DNA of 11,814 nucleotides from a virus (lineage: Duplodnaviria; Heunggongvirae; Uroviricota; Caudoviricetes): the IMG/VR virus record IMGVR_UViG_2579778952_000005, positions 1-11,814 of that record. One strand, written 5' to 3'. A model generated the notes under the pieces. That model was not told the DNA's origin and did no database searches. It saw only the letters and a list, made by a program, of their open reading frames with translations. The stretch's first letter is position 1; each line of letters opens with the position of its first letter. Both the position numbers and the translations under genes were made by a program. Below are positions 1 through 9,649 of this stretch, piece by piece.

Positions 1-69
1 CCGCGCAGACGATGACGTCACTGCCCGGCTGTATGCGCGAGGTTACCGACTGCGGCCTGAGTTTTTTAA
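1..69 (-). CDS. insB: IS1 InsB' N-terminal portion (expressed as InsAB' by -1 frameshift); truncated by window edge
   Basis: Slippery motif TTTAAAAAAC lies on the minus strand at 61-70. The -1 frame from it reads [22 protein letters not shown], matching the start of IS1 InsB. Confidence 0.8.
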
Positions 70-318
70 ATGGCGGAAAATCGTGTTGAGGCCAACGCCC
101 ATAATGCGGGCGGTTGCCCGGCATCCAACGCCATTCATGGCCATATCAATGATTTTCTGGTGCGTACCGGGTTGAGAAGCGGTGTAAGTGAACTGCAGTT
201 GCCATGTTTTACGGCAGTGAGAGCAGAGATAGCGCTGATGTCCGGCGGTGCTTTTGCCGTTACGCACCACCCCGTCAGTAGCTGAACAGGAGGGACAGCT
301 GATAGAAACAGAAGCCAC
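43..318 (-). CDS. insA: IS1 InsA (transposition regulator, N-terminal part of InsAB' transposase)
   Basis: 91-aa [46 protein letters not shown]...HLKNSGRSR matches IS1 InsA as I recall it, at exact length, with CxxC...CxxC zinc-finger motifs. Confidence 0.95.
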
Positions 319-351
319 TGGAGCACCTCAAAAACACCATCATACACTAAA

Positions 352-1479
352 TCAGTAAGTTGGCAGCATCACCTTAATATAAATCTGAGCCTGTTTGTAA
401 TACACGCCACCGATATTGTCTGCAGAGTTACGGCCAGTATCCTGAACATTAATGCCTGACAAAACACAACCAGAAGGTGCTCGAAACGTCCTGCTGTGCT
501 CGTTCCCGCCCGGGTTGTAAAACACCTCACTGGTATACTGAAAATTCTGTACGCCACCTGTTTTGGTCTGGTAGCGGGCATCAAAGTTTCCGTAGTCTGA
601 CGGTATAACCTGACGCCCGCATCGCCAGTTTCCCGCATCATCCATATACGCCTGACCGTCCGTACCATTATCCGTACGGCTATTATTTATCATGTAAATG
701 CCAAACTGCTCATTCCCAAGACCAGCCAGGAAATACTTTCTGTCTGCATGATCCTGACGCAGAAGCGCCTGAGCAGCATCAGTATTTATCCTGTTTTTCC
801 CGAAAATAACGTTGTTGTCACGCATCTGAATCCACGTTCCGTTACTGCTGTTAATCGCAAAACGGCCTGCAAATACATCTTCTGTAACATCCAGACCATG
901 TCCCATAGTTATGCGACCGGTCCTGAGATTAAGCGTAAAGGGGCGTAGCGGCCCAATATCACCACTCTCGCCCTGATTTTCCCGGGTAGGAATGAGGTGC
1001 AGACACTCTTCCGAACGACGAAAAATCAGACCAAAGGCTTCGTTGAAAATCCTCAGTGCATTAACACCACGGATTTTCAGCTCCCCGGTCATGGTGTCAC
1101 CATCACGCTGAACGGCATTTTTTGCCTTGTCCACCGTGGGTTTTAATCCGAGGTTTTCAACAGCCTCATCACTGTCTTCGACATCCGAAAGATTATTTTT
1201 TATCAGCAATGCCTCTTCGTTAATCGCACCGCCCACAAGTAATAATATGGCTTTATATAACTGGTCGTGTTCCTCTTTATTCAGTTTTATCCCGGCCTTC
1301 TCAATGACACCACCGATTTCCTCCTGAAGGGCATCCCACATGGCACTGTTCAGCCAGGTGGCATGACGCCCTGTACGAATATTCCCGTCAGTAAATCCGT
1401 TCTTGCCCGGGCCAAATTTATCTTTAACTGCTGTCGGAGTGTCAATTCTGTGCGTATTAAACCTCCCGTGAATGAAATA
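352..1479 (-). pseudogene. stf: Side tail fibre, C-terminal segment; 3' end replaced by IS1 sequence
   Basis: Frame is open from 1479 to the IS1 boundary at 373/374, then runs 6 codons into the IS1 IRL (VMLPTY) to a TGA at 352-354. Contains tail-fibre motifs AVQRDGDTMTGELKIRG and GNFDARY, similar to P2 gpH and lambda Stf-type fibres as I recall them. It is in frame with the upstream fragment but separated from it by TAA-TTC-TGA (1480-1488). First ATG is at 1341. Confidence 0.7.
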
Positions 1480-1794: not shown

Positions 1795-2261
1795 CAGATA
1801 TCCGTATCGCTGCTCAACTGCACCAACCCCTTTTGGGTTGTGGTGGCATCCATTGTTCTTATGCTGTCGAAAATCTTCTTTACACTTTCTGCATATTCGG
1901 CTGCCGCTTCCGCATTCGCCCTGGCGTGAGACACCAGTTCCTCAAGGTGGATTATCACTTCAGGCCTGGCATTCTGCTCAGTGAATTTCAGTAAAAAATC
2001 ATTCAGCGCCCCAGGCTGAGAATCTTCGTAAACGGTGATGTCCCCTATATTCGATGGTGGATAACCATCAACCAACAGGGTGACGCTGTACTGTCCATAC
2101 TCAACGTCCATACTGTAACGCCCGGTTTCATCCGATCTGACTGAAGCTACAGTACTTGCCAGCACCGTGGTGCTGTGACGCCTTGCCGTCAGCTGAATGA
2201 TGCCATTCTGTATTGGTTTACCTGCACCGTCTTTCAGCACACCTGAAATCTTTACTGCCAT
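1794..2261 (-). CDS. stf: Side tail fibre N-terminal (tail-attachment) domain, 155 aa
   Basis: MAVKISGVLKDGAGKPIQNGIIQL...GRYSMDVEYGQYSVTLLVDGYPPS...ITVYEDSQPG closely matches the N-terminal domain of E. coli prophage side tail fibres (StfR type) as recalled. ATG at 2261 is preceded by GGGGAG. The ORF-track start at 2267 is a GTG two codons upstream. Confidence 0.8.
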   Translation of the reverse strand: MAVKISGVLKDGAGKPIQNGIIQLTARRHSTTVLASTVASVRSDETGRYSMDVEYGQYSVTLLVDGYPPSNIGDITVYEDSQPGALNDFLLKFTEQNARPEVIIHLEELVSHARANAEAAAEYAESVKKIFDSIRTMDATTTQKGLVQLSSDTDI

Positions 2262-2272
2262 ATTCACTCCCC

Positions 2273-2303
2273 AAACAAAAAAGGCACCATTTCTGGTGCC
2301 CTT
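2273..2303 (-). terminator. Rho-independent terminator between J and stf
   Basis: On the minus strand: stem GGCACC (2300-2295), loop AGAAAT, stem GGTGCC (2288-2283), followed by a T-rich run TTTTTTGTTT, immediately after the J stop codon. Confidence 0.6.
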
Positions 2304-2319
2304 ATCCAGGTTATAAAAT

Positions 2320-5300
2320 TCAACTGATACTGATACCTGCTGTTGATTTCTTCATCACCACAACCAGTAAATCGCTGATACTTGCTGTGGGATACCAGCC
2401 ATTTACCAGCCAGGCTGACACAGAAAATTCCAGCCTCATGTGACCGTGACCGGCAGGCATATCAATAACGCCACTGTAAATCAGCGTATTATCCAGCGCA
2501 GTACGGTTATAAATTTCAGCACCGTTTTTCCGCACTATCAGACGGCATGAGGAGTAAATATCAGTATGATTTCGCTCATGCTTAGCGCCGCTGAATGCCA
2601 CCGCCGGAATAACAATCTGTCGGTCAAACGGCTGATCGTCATAAATCCTGACGGTAATGGTCCCTGATGGCCACCGTTCCGGTGCACGGGAGTCCCGGGG
2701 GAAAGCTTTACCCACTGTTTTAACGAGATCGCCTTCAATCTGGTTCGCGGACAGTTTTCCCAGAACCCGGCAGTTCTTGTTAATCGTGACGTTGTTGAGC
2801 GTCCCGGCGTTCGCATTCACGTTACCGCTGATATCCGCATTTCTCGCCGTCAGTCGCCCGTCCGGTGTCAGGGAAAATGCCGGAGGATTGCCACCACTGG
2901 TAATGGTGGGGGCCGTCAGGCGTTTCAGGAACACGTCATTCATGAATATCTGATCACCCTGCGCCACAAACATCGGCGTTTCATTTCCGTTTGCCGGGTC
3001 AATAAACGCGATACGGTTAGCGGCAACCAGGAACTGGCTCAGTTTGCCTTCCTCCGTATCCTCCATGCTGAGGCCAAGCCCCGCGACATAATGTTTGCCG
3101 TCTTTGGTCTGCTCAATTTTGACGCCCCACATGGCATTCCATTTATCGTTGGCGTCCTTCCACTCTTTCGAAAACTCCTCCAGTTTGCTGGCGTTATCTT
3201 CCGTCAGCTCAAAGTTTTCCAGCAGTTCCTTGCCGAGATGCGTTTTATTGATCAACCCTTTATAAAAATTCAGATAACCTTCCGCATCATCGCTCGCCCG
3301 ACCAACGGCCTCCACAAATGCCGATTTACCAACGGTGTTCACGCTGCGGATATAAAAGTAATAATCATAACCCGGCTTAATATTGCTACTGGCGGCTATC
3401 CAGTACAGCGCCGTACCAAGATAACGCGCGCTGGTTTCAACCTGCCTGATATCGATAATCCGCTTTTCCGAGAACCAGAACTCAAACTGCACCGTCGGGT
3501 CATATACAGCCAGTTTCGGGACCGCTGTTATCTGAAAATACCCTGGTATCAGTTCAATAGTGACAGGCGCTGCCGGTGCCGCAATCCGGAACGATACCGA
3601 TGCCGGATCGCCCTGCTGCCCCCACGCATTTACCGCCCGGACCGTCAGCGTGTAACGCCCCAGCGCCAGTTGCCTGAAGCGGTATGTGGTTTCCGTCGTC
3701 CGGGCCGTGCTGACCAGCCGCTCACTGCCGTCATCCGCTGCCACGGTCAGGCGAAGCATAAAGCTCACGCCCTTCACCACCTTCGGTGTGTCCCATCGCG
3801 CCAGCACCTGATATTCCCCGCTGTCTGCAGTGACTTCTGCGGTCAGGTGCTGCACCGCTGGCGGCGTGACACCATTCACCGTGCCACTCTGTTCGCCGTC
3901 AAAGTGCGCCCCGTTATCCACGATGGCCTCTTTTTCCGGCACATGCTGCACGGCGGTGATGGCATACGTGCCGTCGTCGTTCTCACGGATACTCACGCAG
4001 CGGAACAGTCGCTGGCGCAGCGTCGGCAGCTTCAGCCCCCATACGCTGTATTCAGCAACACCGTCAGGAACACGGCTCACTTTTACCTTCACGCCGTCGG
4101 TGACGGACTGAACCTCCACGCTGACCGGATTGCCACTTCCGTCAACCAGGCTTATCAGCGTGGTACCGGAGGATGGCAGCGTGATTTCACGGTCGAGCGT
4201 CAGCGTCCGGGTCTGGCTGTTCACCGCCAGCACACGACCACCGGTGCTGATACCGGCATAGTCATCATCACAGATTTCAATAACATCGCCCGGTACATGG
4301 CGAAGCCCTTCTGCGCCGACGCTGAAATCCACGGTCTGCGTTTCCAGCAGTTCTGTTTTAATCAGCCACAGCCCGGCGCGGTGTGCCTGCCCCCGACTGG
4401 TACAGCCAAAGGCATCCATCTTCGTGACGTTACGACCGTAACGGGCAATGGCCTGCGTGTCCTCCACAAGCTCTGTCGCCGTCTCCCAGCCGTTATCCGG
4501 GTCAATCCAGTTCACCTCAACGGCATTATGGCGGTCCTTCAGGGCGCTGAAGCTGTAGCGGAACGGCGCGCCATCATCCGGCATCACCACATTACTGCGG
4601 TTATAGGTCCACACCTTATCTGATGGTCGGTCCTGCACGAACGTCAGCGTCTGCCCGTTCCATACCGGCATACAGCGCATCGCCGAGCAAAAATCACTGA
4701 GCACATCCCACGCCTTGCGCTGTGTGGTCAGGTACGCATTACAGGTAATGCGCGGCTCCGTGCCGCCAAAGCCATCCGGCACTGACTGGTCGCAATTCTG
4801 GCCGATGACATACAGCGCCCATTTATCCACATCCGCTGCACCAAGACGTTTCCCCATGCCGTAGCGCGGATGGGTCAGCATATCCCACAGACACCAGGCC
4901 ATGTTGTTGCTGTATGCCGGTTTAAACGTTCCGTCCCAGATACCGCTGTATTGTCGCGTCTGCGGGTTATAGTTCGACGGCACCTGCAGAATGCGCCCGC
5001 GCAGATGATAATTACGGCTCACCTGCTGGCTGCCGAACTGCTCCGAATCCACCTGCACGCCGACCAGTGCCGTGTTCGGGTAGCACTGTTTCACATCGAT
5101 GATTTCGGTGTATGACGACCAGAGCGTTTTGTTCTGCAGCTGGTCTGTGGTGCTGTCCGGCGTCATCCTGCGCATCCGGATATTAAACGGGCGCGGCGGC
5201 AGGTTACCCACCACCACCGAGGCCAGATACTGCGAGGTGGTTTTGCCTTTAATGGTGATGTCTTTTTCCGTCACCCAGCCACCGTTACGCTGTATCTGAA

Positions 5301-5715
5301 CCAGCAGGCGGACTTCCGATGGATTCCTGTCCCCCTTTGAGGTGGTTTCCACCAGTGCCTGCACACCGAAGGTAAAACGCAGACGGTCGATGTTTGCCGA
5401 CGTGATGGTCCGGGTGATCGGCGTATCATATTTCACTTCCGTACCCAGCACCGTCTCGGAGCCGGAGGATTCAAACCCCTCCGGCGGTGACTGCTCCTGC
5501 TCACCGGCCCGGAACACCACCGTGACGCCGGATATATTGGTATTCCCCTCACTGTCCAGCACCGGCGTACTGTTCAGCAGCACGCTTTTTAATCCATCCA
5601 CCGGACCTTCAACCGGCCCTTCGCTGATGGCATCGATCACACTCAGCAACTGCGTGGACTTCAGGTTGTCCTTCGCTTCGCGCGGGGTATGCCCCTTACT
5701 GCTGCCTTTACCCAT
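2320..5715 (-). CDS. J: Tail tip host-specificity protein J (central tail fibre), intact, 1131 aa
   Basis: 1131-aa ORF, within one residue of lambda gpJ length, lying directly downstream of I as in lambda. Identity rests on length and synteny; the sequence match to lambda J was not checked. Confidence 0.93.
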
Positions 5716-5775
5716 TCGTCATGCTCCATAAACGACAAAACCGCCCGGAGGCGGTTTCACATAAAATATTTTGCA

Positions 5776-6447
5776 TCATCGACCAATCACCACAACCTGA
5801 CCACCATCCCCTTCGTCTGCCGTGCTGATCTCCTGAGAAATCACGCGTGACCCCACGCGCATTTCACCGTACAGAACGGGCAGAACATTGCCCTGGGCAA
5901 CCATGTTATCCAGTGAGGAGAAATACGTGTTCTGCTTACCGTTATCCGTTGTCTGTGTACGGGGAGTTCTGGCTTTCGGTGCCAGCATCTGCGCCACACC
6001 ACCGAGCACCATACTGGCACCGAGAGAAAACAGGATGCCGGTCATACCACCGGCCCCAATGGCTGCCCCCCATGCTGCAAGGGTGGCTCCGGCGGTAAAG
6101 AATGATCCGGCAATGGCGGCTGCTCCCAGGACAATCTGGAATACACCACCTGACTTGGCCCCGGCGACTCTGGGAACAATATGAATCACAGCGCCATCAG
6201 GCAGAGTCTCATGTAACTGCGCCGTTAATCTGGACGTGCTGACGTCCCGCCCGGCAATCCGTACCTGATACCAGCCGTCGCTCAGTTTCTGACGAAACGC
6301 CGGGAGCTGTGTGGCCAGCGCCCGGATGGCTTCAGCCCCCGTTTTCACACGAAGGTCGATGCGGCGGCCAAATCGTTGCAAATCCCCGTAAAGGCAGATG
6401 CGTGCCATTCCCGGTGACGCCAGAGGGAGTGTGTGCGTCGCTGCCAT
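5776..6447 (-). CDS. I: Tail assembly protein I
   Basis: 223-aa ORF, the same length as lambda gpI, with a Gly/Ala-rich hydrophobic C-terminal half. Its start lies 103 nt inside the 3' end of K, the same out-of-frame overlap as in lambda. Confidence 0.92.
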   Translation of the reverse strand: MAATHTLPLASPGMARICLYGDLQRFGRRIDLRVKTGAEAIRALATQLPAFRQKLSDGWYQVRIAGRDVSTSRLTAQLHETLPDGAVIHIVPRVAGAKSGGVFQIVLGAAAIAGSFFTAGATLAAWGAAIGAGGMTGILFSLGASMVLGGVAQMLAPKARTPRTQTTDNGKQNTYFSSLDNMVAQGNVLPVLYGEMRVGSRVISQEISTADEGDGGQVVVIGR

Positions 6448-7088
6448 TTGTCGGTATACCTCTCTCGTTTACTCAGTTGTTCAGGAATATGGTGCAGCAG
6501 CTCGCCATCACCACAGTAAATGGCGGCATGATTCGGCACCGATGAACCAAAGCAGCACAGCAGCACGTCGCCAGGCTGCGCCTCTGTCAGTGCGACACGG
6601 TAAAAACCAGTCGCCTCCATATTGTCAAGATAGAGATTCTGACCGTTACGCCACCAGTCATCCCCGCGATGAAAATCCGGCATCTCAATCCCCGCCAGAT
6701 GATAAGCATCCCGGAACAGCGTGTAACAGTCCGTCACCCCGTGCTCAAAGCGACGCCCGGTGAGATGCGGCACACAGCGGAACTTGTGAATCGCCCCCCG
6801 GCAGACCAGCCACCACGGCAAATCACTCTGCACCTGCAGCCGCCGGTCAGCATCACTCAGCCAGGGCAGACCTCCGGGGTGGCTGTGGACCAGCGCCACA
6901 ATCTCACCCTGCATTTCTGCCTGCAGCCAGTCTTCCGGCGACATACGGAAATACGCCTCCGGCTCACCGGAGATATTCACGCAGGGAAAATATCTTTCCC
7001 CCTCCGGCGTGCTTACCACGAAGCCGCACGACTCCGCTGGCGCACATCGCCGGGCGTGCGCCAGAATCGCTGATTCTGTCTCTGTCAT
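6345..7088 (-). CDS. K: Tail assembly protein K (JAB/MPN plus NlpC/P60 domains)
   Basis: Contains a JAMM-type motif HSHPGGLPWLSDAD and an NlpC/P60-like Cys/His region (GVTDCYTLF, PNHAAIY). Start chosen at ATG 7088 (MTETES...). The ORF-track start at 7163 is a GTG overlapping L. The classical 199-aa lambda K would start at the internal M at 6944. Confidence 0.85.
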   Translation of the reverse strand: MTETESAILAHARRCAPAESCGFVVSTPEGERYFPCVNISGEPEAYFRMSPEDWLQAEMQGEIVALVHSHPGGLPWLSDADRRLQVQSDLPWWLVCRGAIHKFRCVPHLTGRRFEHGVTDCYTLFRDAYHLAGIEMPDFHRGDDWWRNGQNLYLDNMEATGFYRVALTEAQPGDVLLCCFGSSVPNHAAIYCGDGELLHHIPEQLSKRERYTDKWQRRTHSLWRHREWHASAFTGICNDLAAASTFV

Positions 7089-7092
7089 GGGA

Positions 7093-7716
7093 TTACTGCG
7101 AAAGTTTGTTAATGGAAAGGAAGCCGCCAAAGTTGCCGACGTTATTGCGAAACTTACAGCCACTCAGGCATTTGCTGCATTTATCTTTCGTGATATCGGA
7201 CGTCGGCTGGTCATATTCATCCGCGACAGCCGGACCGCTATAACCGCACTCGTCACCGCGATAGGTCCAGGTGCAGGTGTTGGCCAGCATGATACGTCCC
7301 GGAAAAACAGCGCCATCCGTTTCCGTCGGCGTGGACAGTACAAAGGAGGCACTCACCGCGCTCAGTTCGCTGCACTGCTCAATGCGCCAGCGGCTGATCA
7401 CCTCCTGCTCCGGATCGGCGTCACTGTTTCCGTTGACGAAGTTCACCGCATCCAGAAAACAGGCGTAAACCTTACGCCGGACCACCGTTCCGCCGACCAG
7501 ACTCTGCAGATCTTCCGCCATCCCGGTGACCATACCGTACAGGTTAGAAACCGTCAGCGTGGGGCGCGTACTGGTGCCTTTGCCATTCAGTTCAAAACCA
7601 CTCCCCTGAATGGGATACGGCTGATACTGTCGCCCCTGCCAGGTGACCGGCTCACCTTTTTCGTTCTGCTCATTACAGAAAAAATAACGTTCTCCACCGA
7701 CCTCTGTCAGGTCGAT
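7093..7716 (-). pseudogene. L: Tail tip protein L, 5'-truncated (lacks about the first 25 codons and its start)
   Basis: Frame reads [37 protein letters not shown]...MVTGMAEDLQSLVGG...CSKCLSGCKFRNNVGNFGGFLSINKLSQ, matching lambda gpL from about residue 26 to the end, including the C-terminal Cys cluster. Upstream, the frame hits TAA at 7726-7728 inside V-derived sequence. First ATG is at 7533. Confidence 0.85.
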
Positions 7717-8200
7717 TTGCCGCTGTTACCGTGCTGCGATCTTCTGCCATCGACGGACGGCCCACATTGGTGACTTTCACCGTGCGGGTGATCACTTCCT
7801 TCGCCGTCACCGCCTTACCGATACTGCTGACCCAGCCACGGAACACATCGACCGTGCCGTTCGGGAAGCGGATTTTATAGGCACGGGTATCGCCTTCATT
7901 AAACCACGCCAGCAGCGCCTGCTGCCCCTGCTCTCCGGGCATCCACGCCAGCGTGAAGCTGGTATCTCCGGCAGATTTCTGCCCCTGCCCGGTCGCAGTC
8001 CAGTCTGCATCTTCATCATCGAGATAGCTGTCGTCATAGGACTCAGCGGTCAGTTCGCCGGGCGTCAGGTCTTTAACTTTTGCCAGACGCGACCAGTCAA
8101 CGTCTGAAAGCGGATTCGCATAAGGGTCACCGCTCCCCTTATAAACCCACAGGGTGGTCCCGGCACCTTTCACCGGCATTGTAGGATTTGGTACAGGCAT
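7673..8200 (-). pseudogene. V: Major tail protein V, 3'-truncated (residues 1 to about 161, then 14 out-of-frame codons)
   Basis: [45 protein letters not shown]...RSTVTAA matches lambda gpV as recalled. After codon 7720-7718 the sequence becomes L-derived and the frame ends [18 protein letters not shown]. ATG at 8200 is preceded by GAGGA and lies 7 nt after the U stop. Confidence 0.85.
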
Positions 8201-8207
8201 AGCGTCC

Positions 8208-8603
8208 TCACATTTCATAGGTAATGACATAAGTCATATCGGCTGAACTCCACAGGCCCGCATCATCGTCGCGCCGGTAGTCATAGCCACTGACCACCAT
8301 ACTGGTGATCAAATCTGACAGTGCCGGGATATCGCTCATCACCGGATAAATCCGGGACTCCATCCACGCATCCAGCTCTGAATTCGGCACCTGAGCAGGC
8401 AGGAAAACTTCGATATGCAGCTCCGCCTGCCAGGTATCGCTGTCCAGCTCTTCGCCCGTGTATTCAGCGCCGGTGAGATAAACGGCAACTGCCGGAAAAT
8501 CCGCCTCATCAAAAACAGCGGGGCGACCATCAAAAAACGTCGCCCCGGTGTCATGCTTCTCCAGTGCATCCAGTACGGCTGCACGGAGTTCAGTATGTTT
8601 CAT
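8208..8603 (-). CDS. U: Tail terminator protein U
   Basis: 131-aa [53 protein letters not shown]... matches lambda gpU at the same length. Its ATG overlaps the upstream stop in an ATGA arrangement, as for Z-U in lambda. Confidence 0.93.
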
Positions 8604-9649
8604 CGCTTTATTACCATCCTCAGTTGATGCTGCAGCGCATAGCCCAGCTCTTTCGGAAGACGTTCACGCCGTATCCGCTCAATATTCTGTTTAAACGCCG
8701 TGGTCAGCGGCACCGCCATCGGGATTTTCACCACATCAATGGGGTAACGGTTTTTCCCGGCCACACGCTGCATAACATGCCACCGGCCGTTTTTCAGTTG
8801 CTGAATAAACGCGCCGGGAATACGACGGTTACCCACCACAAGCACGCTGCCGCCACCTTTCAGGGATGAACGCTGCCCCTTTTTACGACGCCTGCGGCGG
8901 GACAGGACAACCCGCGCATTACCCAGCTTGATTACGGGCAAATCCCCCCGGTTAACTTTGATTCTGGCCTGCGGATTTTTGACCGTGGCCCTTTTCAGCC
9001 TGGCCCTTTCCTTTACCAGTTTCCGGCGTACCTTTGTCTCACGGGCAACCTGTGACGCAGACTGCGATATCGCGGATGAAGCAACGCGGTTATCCTCATC
9101 AAAGGCAGCAAGTTCATCATAACCCGCCACATCCACTGACTTTTCACGGTAGTTTTTTGCCGCTTTACCGCCCAGGCACCAGAAGCCACGCCCATTGGTG
9201 AAACGCTTCATGGTGAGCGTGTTATCCCGGTGCTTTTTGCCATACCACGGGGCCAGCGCCAGCAGCGACGGAATATCACGAATAGTCGGCTCAACGTGGG
9301 TTTTCATAAAGTTCTCGGCATCACCATCCGTCGGCAACCAGATAAGGGTGTTGCGCTGCTTATGCTCTATGAAGTAGGCATAAACACCCAGCAGCATTTT
9401 GGAATAACCAACACGGGCAGACTTCACCACATTCACCTCGCGGATGTAGTCACTGCCCATCGCATTCATGATGGCCCGCTGAAAGGGCAGTGTTTCCCAG
9501 CGCCCTTCCTGGTATGCGGATTCTTTCGGGAGATAGTAACTGGCATCCGCCCATTCAACGGCAGTCTGTGGCTCCGGCCTGAACAGGGCTCGCAGCCCGG
9601 CGCGTACATCACGCCGCAGAATATCAATCTGACTGTTCGATATATTCAC
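8600..9649 (-). pseudogene. In-frame fusion: terminase large subunit A N-terminus (about 185 aa) joined to tail completion protein Z C-terminus (about 163 aa)
   Basis: Residues 1-185 (MNISNSQ...VVKSARVGYSK Walker A...DVAGYDELAAFDE) match the lambda gpA N-terminus. Residues 187-349 (NRVASSAISQSASQVARETKV...LRMVIKR) match lambda gpZ from about residue 30 to its C-terminus. GTG start at 9649 overlaps the Nu1 3' end by 26 nt, as in lambda. Confidence 0.85.

Follow-up and report, generated by a model that had tools for sequence, protein, structure and literature searches.

The open reading frame at positions 8600–9649 on the minus strand of an E. coli contig is very probably the scar of a 6.8-kb deletion in a defective lambda-like prophage, which joined the beginning of the terminase gene A to the end of the tail gene Z at a Z-side breakpoint that was not chosen at random. 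The window analyzed here takes in all 11,814 bp of contig JMGQ01000081.1, from E. coli assembly GCA_000687125.1. Breakpoints in lambda-like prophages recur at the motif TAACCG, with the exchange at TA and a polarity intrinsic to the motif, and both deletions and inversions occur there. The A′–′Z scar in itself is an ordinary case of prophage decay, already public as a pseudogene pair. A sequence-only reading of the window had recognized the fusion and was right on every point open to measurement; it had missed two further internal deletions, an independent A–Z deletion in Qin-type prophages and the recurrent Z-side breakpoint.

Structure of the A′–′Z fusion

The fusion ORF is uninterrupted, encodes 349 amino acids and begins with GTG in the ORF listing. 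In separate protein comparisons its residues 2–186 match gpA, with 177 of the 185 positions identical to lambda, and its residues 187–349 match gpZ 30–192, identical to lambda at 163 of 163 positions. The earlier estimate of about 185 residues of A joined to about 163 of Z is correct to within one residue, and each half matches the protein to which it had been assigned. At the nucleotide level, blastn aligns window 10345–9091 with lambda J02459 13–1269 at 86% identity overall (about 94% in the A part), and window 9092–7717 with lambda 8063–9438 at 99.0%. The A′ segment (terminase large subunit codons 1–186; 9091–9649, minus strand) corresponds to lambda 711–1269, and the ′Z segment (tail protein Z residues 30–192 and the stop codon; 8600–9092, minus strand) to lambda 8063–8555.

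Retained in A′ are the N-terminal part that binds Nu1, the Walker A segment KSARVGYS, and VAGYDE. Lambda 1270–2636 is missing, and with it the remainder of the ATPase, the nuclease domain and the C-terminus that binds the portal. The Pfam family GpA_ATPase matches residues 47–194 of the fusion over HMM positions 3–151 of 247 only; the N-terminal ATPase domain of a lambda-type gpA is incomplete, as the ORF departs from A at residue 186. Pfam returns no GpA_nuclease match in the fusion ORF; the domain is present in intact relatives (L042, a 641-residue gene). Minor_tail_Z matches residues 187–349 over HMM positions 28–190 of 190, and gpZ is not full-length, since residues 1–29 of lambda Z are deleted.

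The deletion junction lies at 9091/9092, inside the interval 9089–9094 proposed from the sequence. Three-way alignments with lambda and the intact prophage of genome E200139 show that the TA at window 9092–9091 is common to both parents (lambda 1266–67 in A, 8063–64 in Z). The alignment to lambda thus gives the TA dinucleotide as the microhomology, and the deletion is clean, as had been claimed, with a 2-nt overlap and zero inserted bases. The A-side partner reads GAGGA-TA-TTGAAC and has only TA in common with the TAACCG motif. The junction codons GAT GAG GAT/AAC CGC (D-E-D/N-R) are read through in frame. The 26-nt overlap of Nu1 and A at 9624–9649 and the ATGA overlap of Z and U at 8600–8603 are intact and the same as in lambda, again as had been claimed.

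The window is a short draft contig with an IS1 end, so that an assembly chimera formed at a contig or repeat boundary has to be considered. However, the junction lies inside the contig and is base-for-base the same in three complete chromosomes, independent drafts, ENA metagenomes and Logan assemblies; the probability of a chimera is negligible. The exact 349-residue protein is present on 21 contigs from NCBI, ENA and Logan, and the identical scar DNA in at least three complete genomes (E400634, E500002 and E600003) and, in a metagenome scan, on a gut-metagenome contig. The scar is real and heritable. RefSeq, produced by the NCBI PGAP pipeline, calls the fusion as two partial CDSs or pseudogenes in the three complete genomes.

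Deletion of the head module

The lost segment measures 6,795 bp in lambda coordinates and comprises the rest of A, W, B, C/Nu3, D, E, FI, FII and the Z 5′ end, exactly the genes named in the sequence-only reading, which had put the loss at about 6.8 kb. A single break-and-join linked the TA in A to the TA in Z. One 349-residue ORF results, since the two genes are read in the same frame in lambda and the number of base pairs lost is divisible by three (3 × 2265).

A near-identical prophage in E200139 occupies the same chromosomal site, adjoining potB, and keeps the full head module. It encodes Nu1, A (641 residues), W, portal, S49 protease, D, E, FI, FII and Z (192 residues), and continues with U, V, G, T, H, M, L, K, I, J and stf. 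In the alignment, the window is 98.1–99.9% identical to E200139 on both sides of the scar, and 6,790 bp are absent. The presence of the head module in this intact counterpart at the same attachment site settles the deletion reading. A phage that naturally encodes A–Z as one gene, the case that would speak against a deletion, was not found.

The Nu1–A′ patch of the window is only 91% identical to E200139, which therefore carries a different allele there. On sequence comparison, the E200139 prophage is the closest intact relative at the locus and not the direct ancestor, because of this divergent segment; two different relatives are therefore needed to reconstruct the state before the deletion. 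The 559 nt of A′ are 100% identical to the intact 641-residue A gene of strain 350, and Z′–U–V′ is 99.9% identical to intact prophages elsewhere. The A′ allele is 98.4% identical to phage IdasGreatGrand. The mosaic patch spans window 9091–10312, of which 10026–10312 is not aligned to E200139 by megablast, and its flanks are 98–99.9% identical. The intact potB prophages (E200139, E200086, 100248 and 100117) share with the window the integration site, the variant cosN, the lysis–cos region (99.9%) and the Z-to-J tail genes (98–99.5%). Unlike the window, they have a complete head module, G-T-H-M, a full-length stf and the other Nu1–A allele (91%).

The deletion had been called possibly recent, and judging from the sequences this is plausible: there has been no decay since the deletion, because A′ and Z′–U–V′ are 100% and 99.9% identical to intact genes. 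Against a very young event stands its fixation in a lineage represented by at least three complete genomes and 21 contigs. Deletion adjacent to an insertion sequence is rejected, as the joint reads A, TA, Z with nothing between; the sole insertion sequence in the window (IS1, 1–366) lies 8.7 kb from the junction. The break at lambda 8063 is not a mosaic boundary between Z alleles either, since GCAATGGCCATTAACCGCGT is conserved even in the divergent allele of strain 350.

Gene map and further defects of the prophage

The minus-strand order of the window is lysis-side ORFs, variant cos, Nu1, A′/′Z, U, V′/′L, K, I, J, stf′ and an IS1 end. A 109-residue ORF between the lysis genes and cos (10754–11083, minus strand) belongs to no Pfam family, and its region in E400634 is annotated by RefSeq as a hypothetical protein. 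The cosN site at 10346–10357 (minus strand) has the variant cohesive end GGGCGGAAGGCG, where lambda has GGGCGGCGACCT. The variant cosN reads GGCGGAAGGCG with a preceding G, the intact relative E200139 has the same variant, and the flanking sequence is lambda-like, resembling cosQ and cosB. Nu1, the terminase small subunit (9624–10169, minus strand, 181 residues), is intact, collinear with lambda 191–736, and matches Phage_Nu1 over 1–164 of 164 positions (E 2.6e-90). U, the tail terminator (8208–8603, minus strand, 131 residues), is also intact, matches Phage_tail_U over 1–130 of 130 positions and overlaps the stop codon of Z.

The tail tube gene V′ (7717–8200, minus strand) is broken at lambda 9438 and then runs out of frame to a stop at 7673; RefSeq labels it "phage tail tube protein, missing C-terminus". 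The V′–′L junction at 7717–7721 joins V (lambda 9438) to L (lambda 13499) out of frame. The 4,065 bp lost here comprise the 3′ end of V, all of G, T, H (the tape measure gene) and M, and the 5′ end of L. The ′L segment, minor tail protein L without its N-terminus (7093–7721, minus strand), equals lambda 13499–14127 and matches Phage_tail_L over HMM positions 59–206 of 206. The distal tail genes K (6345–7088), I (5776–6447) and J (2320–5715), on the minus strand in the same late operon (2320–7088), are intact, and the K-I-J region is 95% identical to lambda 13499–18437. A third deletion, of 1,392 bp relative to E200139, lies inside stf at window 1801–1804 and has a TCCG overlap. Between J and stf (window 2268–2319), lom is missing; lambda carries it there.

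An IS1 end (insA, 1–366, minus strand) cuts the distal tail-fibre gene at the contig edge. E400634, E500002 and E600003 carry otherwise identical prophages without IS1, which run on into the tail-fibre assembly gene. The identity of the window to E400634-type genomes begins at position 367.

In summary of the gene content, lambda-collinear late genes are present without W, B, C, D, E, FI, FII, G, T, H and M. The prophage is a multiply defective remnant, and it can build neither heads nor tails, because the head module and G, T, H and M are gone and the side tail fibre is broken. The K-12 cryptic ("grounded") lambdoid prophages DLP12, Rac, Qin and e14 were inactivated by internal deletions and IS insertions, and often keep a Nu1 homologue beside truncated packaging or tail genes. 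Unlike them, the window prophage still has intact cos, Nu1, U and K-I-J and shows no decay at its scars. We know of no in-frame A–Z fusion in any K-12 prophage.

Predicted fate of the fusion product

The fusion is most likely a pseudogene with a product devoid of function, as we infer from its domain content only. The product would hold the Nu1-binding N-terminus and the first 60% of the ATPase fold, and would miss the rest of the ATPase, the nuclease domain, the portal-binding end and the 29 N-terminal residues of Z. The ORF, however, is free of stop codons and frameshifts, a sequence compatible with retention by selection. Binding of gpNu1 by the gpA N-terminus is established lambda biology. 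One may therefore imagine a working protein, for example a dominant-negative decoy giving superinfection exclusion, in which the retained gpA N-terminus binds the Nu1 of superinfecting lambda-like phages and poisons their terminase. The intact frame, the preserved translational coupling to Nu1 and U, the zero degenerative mutations and the persistence of the lineage in several assemblies speak for such a protein.

We nevertheless regard a selected protein as highly unlikely. An in-frame join has a one-in-three chance and is not significant alone, and the independent Qin-type A–Z and Nu1–Z junctions are out of frame. All copies of the fusion are approximately 100% identical, which leaves purifying selection without a signal to test. 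The adjoining V′–′L scar is out of frame and yet equally preserved; therefore, the preservation reflects youth only. Moreover, the late operon is silent in a repressed prophage.

Independent rearrangements at the same Z-side breakpoint

A second, independent A–Z deletion is present in the Qin-type prophages of four genomes (NCCP12480, B-JRPT-4119, O15_8X and FORC_082). As in the window, Nu1 is intact, truncated A is joined to Z, the head module is lost, and the Z-side breakpoint is at the same TAACCG (lambda 8064). Unlike the window, the A-side breakpoint is at lambda 1643 (vs 1267), the overlap is CA/A and not TA, the join is out of frame, the integration site is ydfJ, and the Nu1–A allele is 98% identical to lambda (vs 86–94% for the window). 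The Qin-type form, nohA–A′–′Z–′U′, is found in only 4 of 5,426 complete genomes. Its A′ encodes 312 residues and the chain precedes stf′/tfaQ/pinQ (L002 12001–13636 in NCCP12480; also L010 and L031). Derivation of the window junction from the Qin-type junction as a secondary product is rejected, as it needs a second deletion at exactly the same base, and the A alleles differ. A metagenome scan for A–Z junctions returned only these two types, the window type and the Qin type, and a genome-contig scan for such junctions found nothing.

The left side of the same breakpoint is also used. A sampled search with the intact FII–Z region as query returned strain EC50, in which Z residues 1–29 are fused to Tfa at the same TA. 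The EC50 locus (NZ_CP056073, L006 8891–9548) is a chain of fragments corresponding to lambda A 952–1022, C 4679–4729, Z 7969–8064 and tfa 22104–22535. The Z(1–29)::Tfa fusion is in frame, and RefSeq labels it as an intact "tail fiber assembly protein".

We scanned 2.9 million IMG/VR viral contigs for sequences that match Z on one flank of lambda 8063/64 and depart from it on the opposite flank. Four junction loci keep the right side of Z with a mismatch on the left, and four keep the left side with a mismatch on the right. Controls about 50 nt downstream in Z (lambda 8112–8139) and at the next TA, 22 nt away (lambda 8086), return zero loci on both sides, as does the same site when the TA itself is required to be lost. 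The partners at the hot spot are the Nu1 end, a KilA-N gene, the L start (in frame), inverted stf, a host gene and an early "ash" gene.

Loci L007 and L014, both from IMG genome 2547132281, represent the reciprocal junctions of a single inversion between the TA in Z and a TA in an "ash family" gene. The TA is retained at each of them, and the exchange neither added nor removed a base; for this one related event, both reciprocal products thus retain the 2-bp core, as a conservative recombination with a 2-bp stagger would predict. The inversion spans roughly 15–20 kb within one prophage. The native ash partner in ETEC H10407 (L033 3240–3262) reads CAC-TA-CGT. For the A–Z deletion of the window, the reciprocal product is lost.

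The junction may instead be the product of ordinary random illegitimate recombination, and its coincidence with other breaks at lambda 8063 due to chance or shared ancestry. Its 2-nt microhomology agrees with such an origin, as random joins give that in about 16% of cases (P(k) = (k+1)(1/4)^k(3/4)^2), and other junctions in the same defective prophages lie at non-recurrent places with overlaps of 1–9 nt. However, more than ten different left partners, including A at two sites, Nu1, E, KilA-N and a replication-protein N-terminus, are joined exactly to T8063, and at least five different right partners exactly to A8064. Shared ancestry is unable to change the partner side, the two control positions return no junctions, and the further TAACCG copies, two in Z and one each in FII and A, act alike. 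Random recombination combined with chance or ancestry is strongly disfavoured, and we consider it very improbable.

The TAACCG motif

The motif TAACCG at the Z-side breakpoint occupies window 9087–9092 on the minus strand, and further copies are located at 8949–8954 and 8826–8831 on the same strand. Gene Z holds TAACCG at lambda 8063, 8201 and 8324, and all three copies are fusion points. Together with one copy at the FII end and one in A, they are the fusion points of more than 30 deletions and inversions in public E. coli data, judged to be independent from their distinct partner sequences (related loci, with ends at TAACCG or the looser TA-N-CCG: L002, L006–L010, L012, L014, L018, L020 and L042–L044). 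Fusions before N30 (lambda 8063) are found in the window and in proteins P0004, P0005, P0006 (capsid E), P0010, P0011, P0023 and P0123. Those after V75 (lambda 8201) are P0164 (to gpI) and P0165, and those at G116/N117 (lambda 8324) are P0121, P0122 (portal), P0123 and locus L009.

When the Z′ part was used as query in unbiased protein searches, about 12 of the 17 fusions in Z fell at the three TAACCG copies, compared with about 0.4 expected there if breaks were uniform (±2 nt per copy, 15 of 579 nt); elsewhere in Z only single events are seen. Three of the Z fusions from the protein searches are confirmed on DNA. The prediction was tested in FII, where a fourth TAACCG lies at V112/N113 and at least four fusions occur exactly there. 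In a second FII allele, seven further fusions lie at CA-CCGG, nine bases upstream of this site. The remaining 108 FII codons hold about three fusions.

The polarity of the exchange follows the motif. In P0289, A at CGGTTA (lambda 950) is joined to CGGGTA in FII; therefore, the motif works in both orientations. A genome-wide polarity, such as that of the leftward-growing strand, is rejected, as the event at the inverted CGGTTA in A contradicts it. The variable base always remains with its CCG side, i.e. the exchange takes place at TA. Partner sites often look like the motif themselves, for example GGATATCCGG (in L), GGATACCCG (in E), GATACCGGGG (in Nu1) and GGTATCCG (in KilA-N). The other two deletions of the window each have one motif-like end: the V-side break of the V′–′L deletion is at GGCA/ACCGGC, and one parent of the stf deletion reads GATATCCGG.

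Candidate mechanisms of the hot spot

The events share several features with short-homology illegitimate recombination or alternative end joining. The window junction has a 2-nt overlap, zero added bases and an IS-free joint, and the partner sites of related events often share interrupted TA-N-CCG homology. Unlike in random break-and-join, the same dinucleotide recurs at one of the two ends, the exchange invariably takes place on the TA side in either orientation of the motif, and one inversion kept the TA at both reciprocal junctions without base change.

Two candidate mechanisms may explain these features. The first is an enzyme that would cut with a 2-nt TA stagger next to N-CCG, for example a TA-targeting transposase acting on pseudo-ends, a serine-type recombinase or a nuclease; such an enzyme would best account for the conservative inversion. 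In the second, a 3′ end reading ...CGG-N-TA would re-anneal at another TA(N)CCG and be extended, by template switching or primed end joining. A primed 3′ end would best account for the interrupted homology and for the variable base travelling with the CCG side. We tentatively speculate, giving the idea somewhat less than an even chance, that a sequence-directed process at TA-N-CCG (best TAACCG) drives much of the dismantling of E. coli lambda-like prophages, the A–Z fusion included. The process could be a nuclease, recombinase or transposase with a 2-nt TA stagger, or a motif-specific template switch. If so, the ends of deletions and inversions would be predictable from sequence.

Known systems do not fit the sites. 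Invertases of the Din family (Pin/Gin/Hin) cross over at the central 2 bp between half-sites of the type ...AAACC NN GGTTT..., and the pix site is TTCTCCCAAACCAA (PMC12529663). Action of such an invertase at a secondary site is rejected, as AACC lies to the right of the exchanged TA and the register is 5 nt off; a Pin/pix pseudo-site is rejected also since suitable inverted repeats do not flank the site. The annotation of this prophage contains no invertase gene. Xer/dif-like sites, integron GTTRRRY sites and gyrase sites with a 4-bp stagger were rejected by eye, as the exchange is not at TA or the site is not common to all; type IIP, IIS and III restriction sites, whether overlapping the three Z motifs or lying at a constant spacing from them, were rejected by eye on the same grounds. 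Hairpin stalling is rejected because the 10-nt palindrome AATGGCCATT abuts the first motif only and not the other TAACCG copies. Insertion of an IS at TA followed by its loss is likewise rejected, with the IS absent from the site in every retrieved locus.

Literature searches returned nothing on such a TAACCG hot spot, and a motif-bound rearrangement hot spot in lambda-like prophages appears to be undescribed. The fusion itself matters little, being one more example of prophage grounding. If a short motif directs prophage inactivation in E. coli, the phage sequence would partly encode how fast prophages are domesticated and with what result, and structural-gene fusions in databases would be predictable and filterable. 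The sequence-directed process would, if real, amount to an unrecognized DNA-breaking or -joining activity, or to a strong sequence-specific replication slippage, testable in lambda lysogens. Annotations call for caution, as gene callers report a 349-residue "terminase/tail" protein or, in EC50, a "tail fiber assembly protein" whose first 29 residues come from Z.

The Z alleles P0001, P0002, P0016, P0038, P0042 and P0112 contain in-frame internal duplications or deletions of 9–67 residues between short repeats. These repeat-flanked changes are separate from the TAACCG events.
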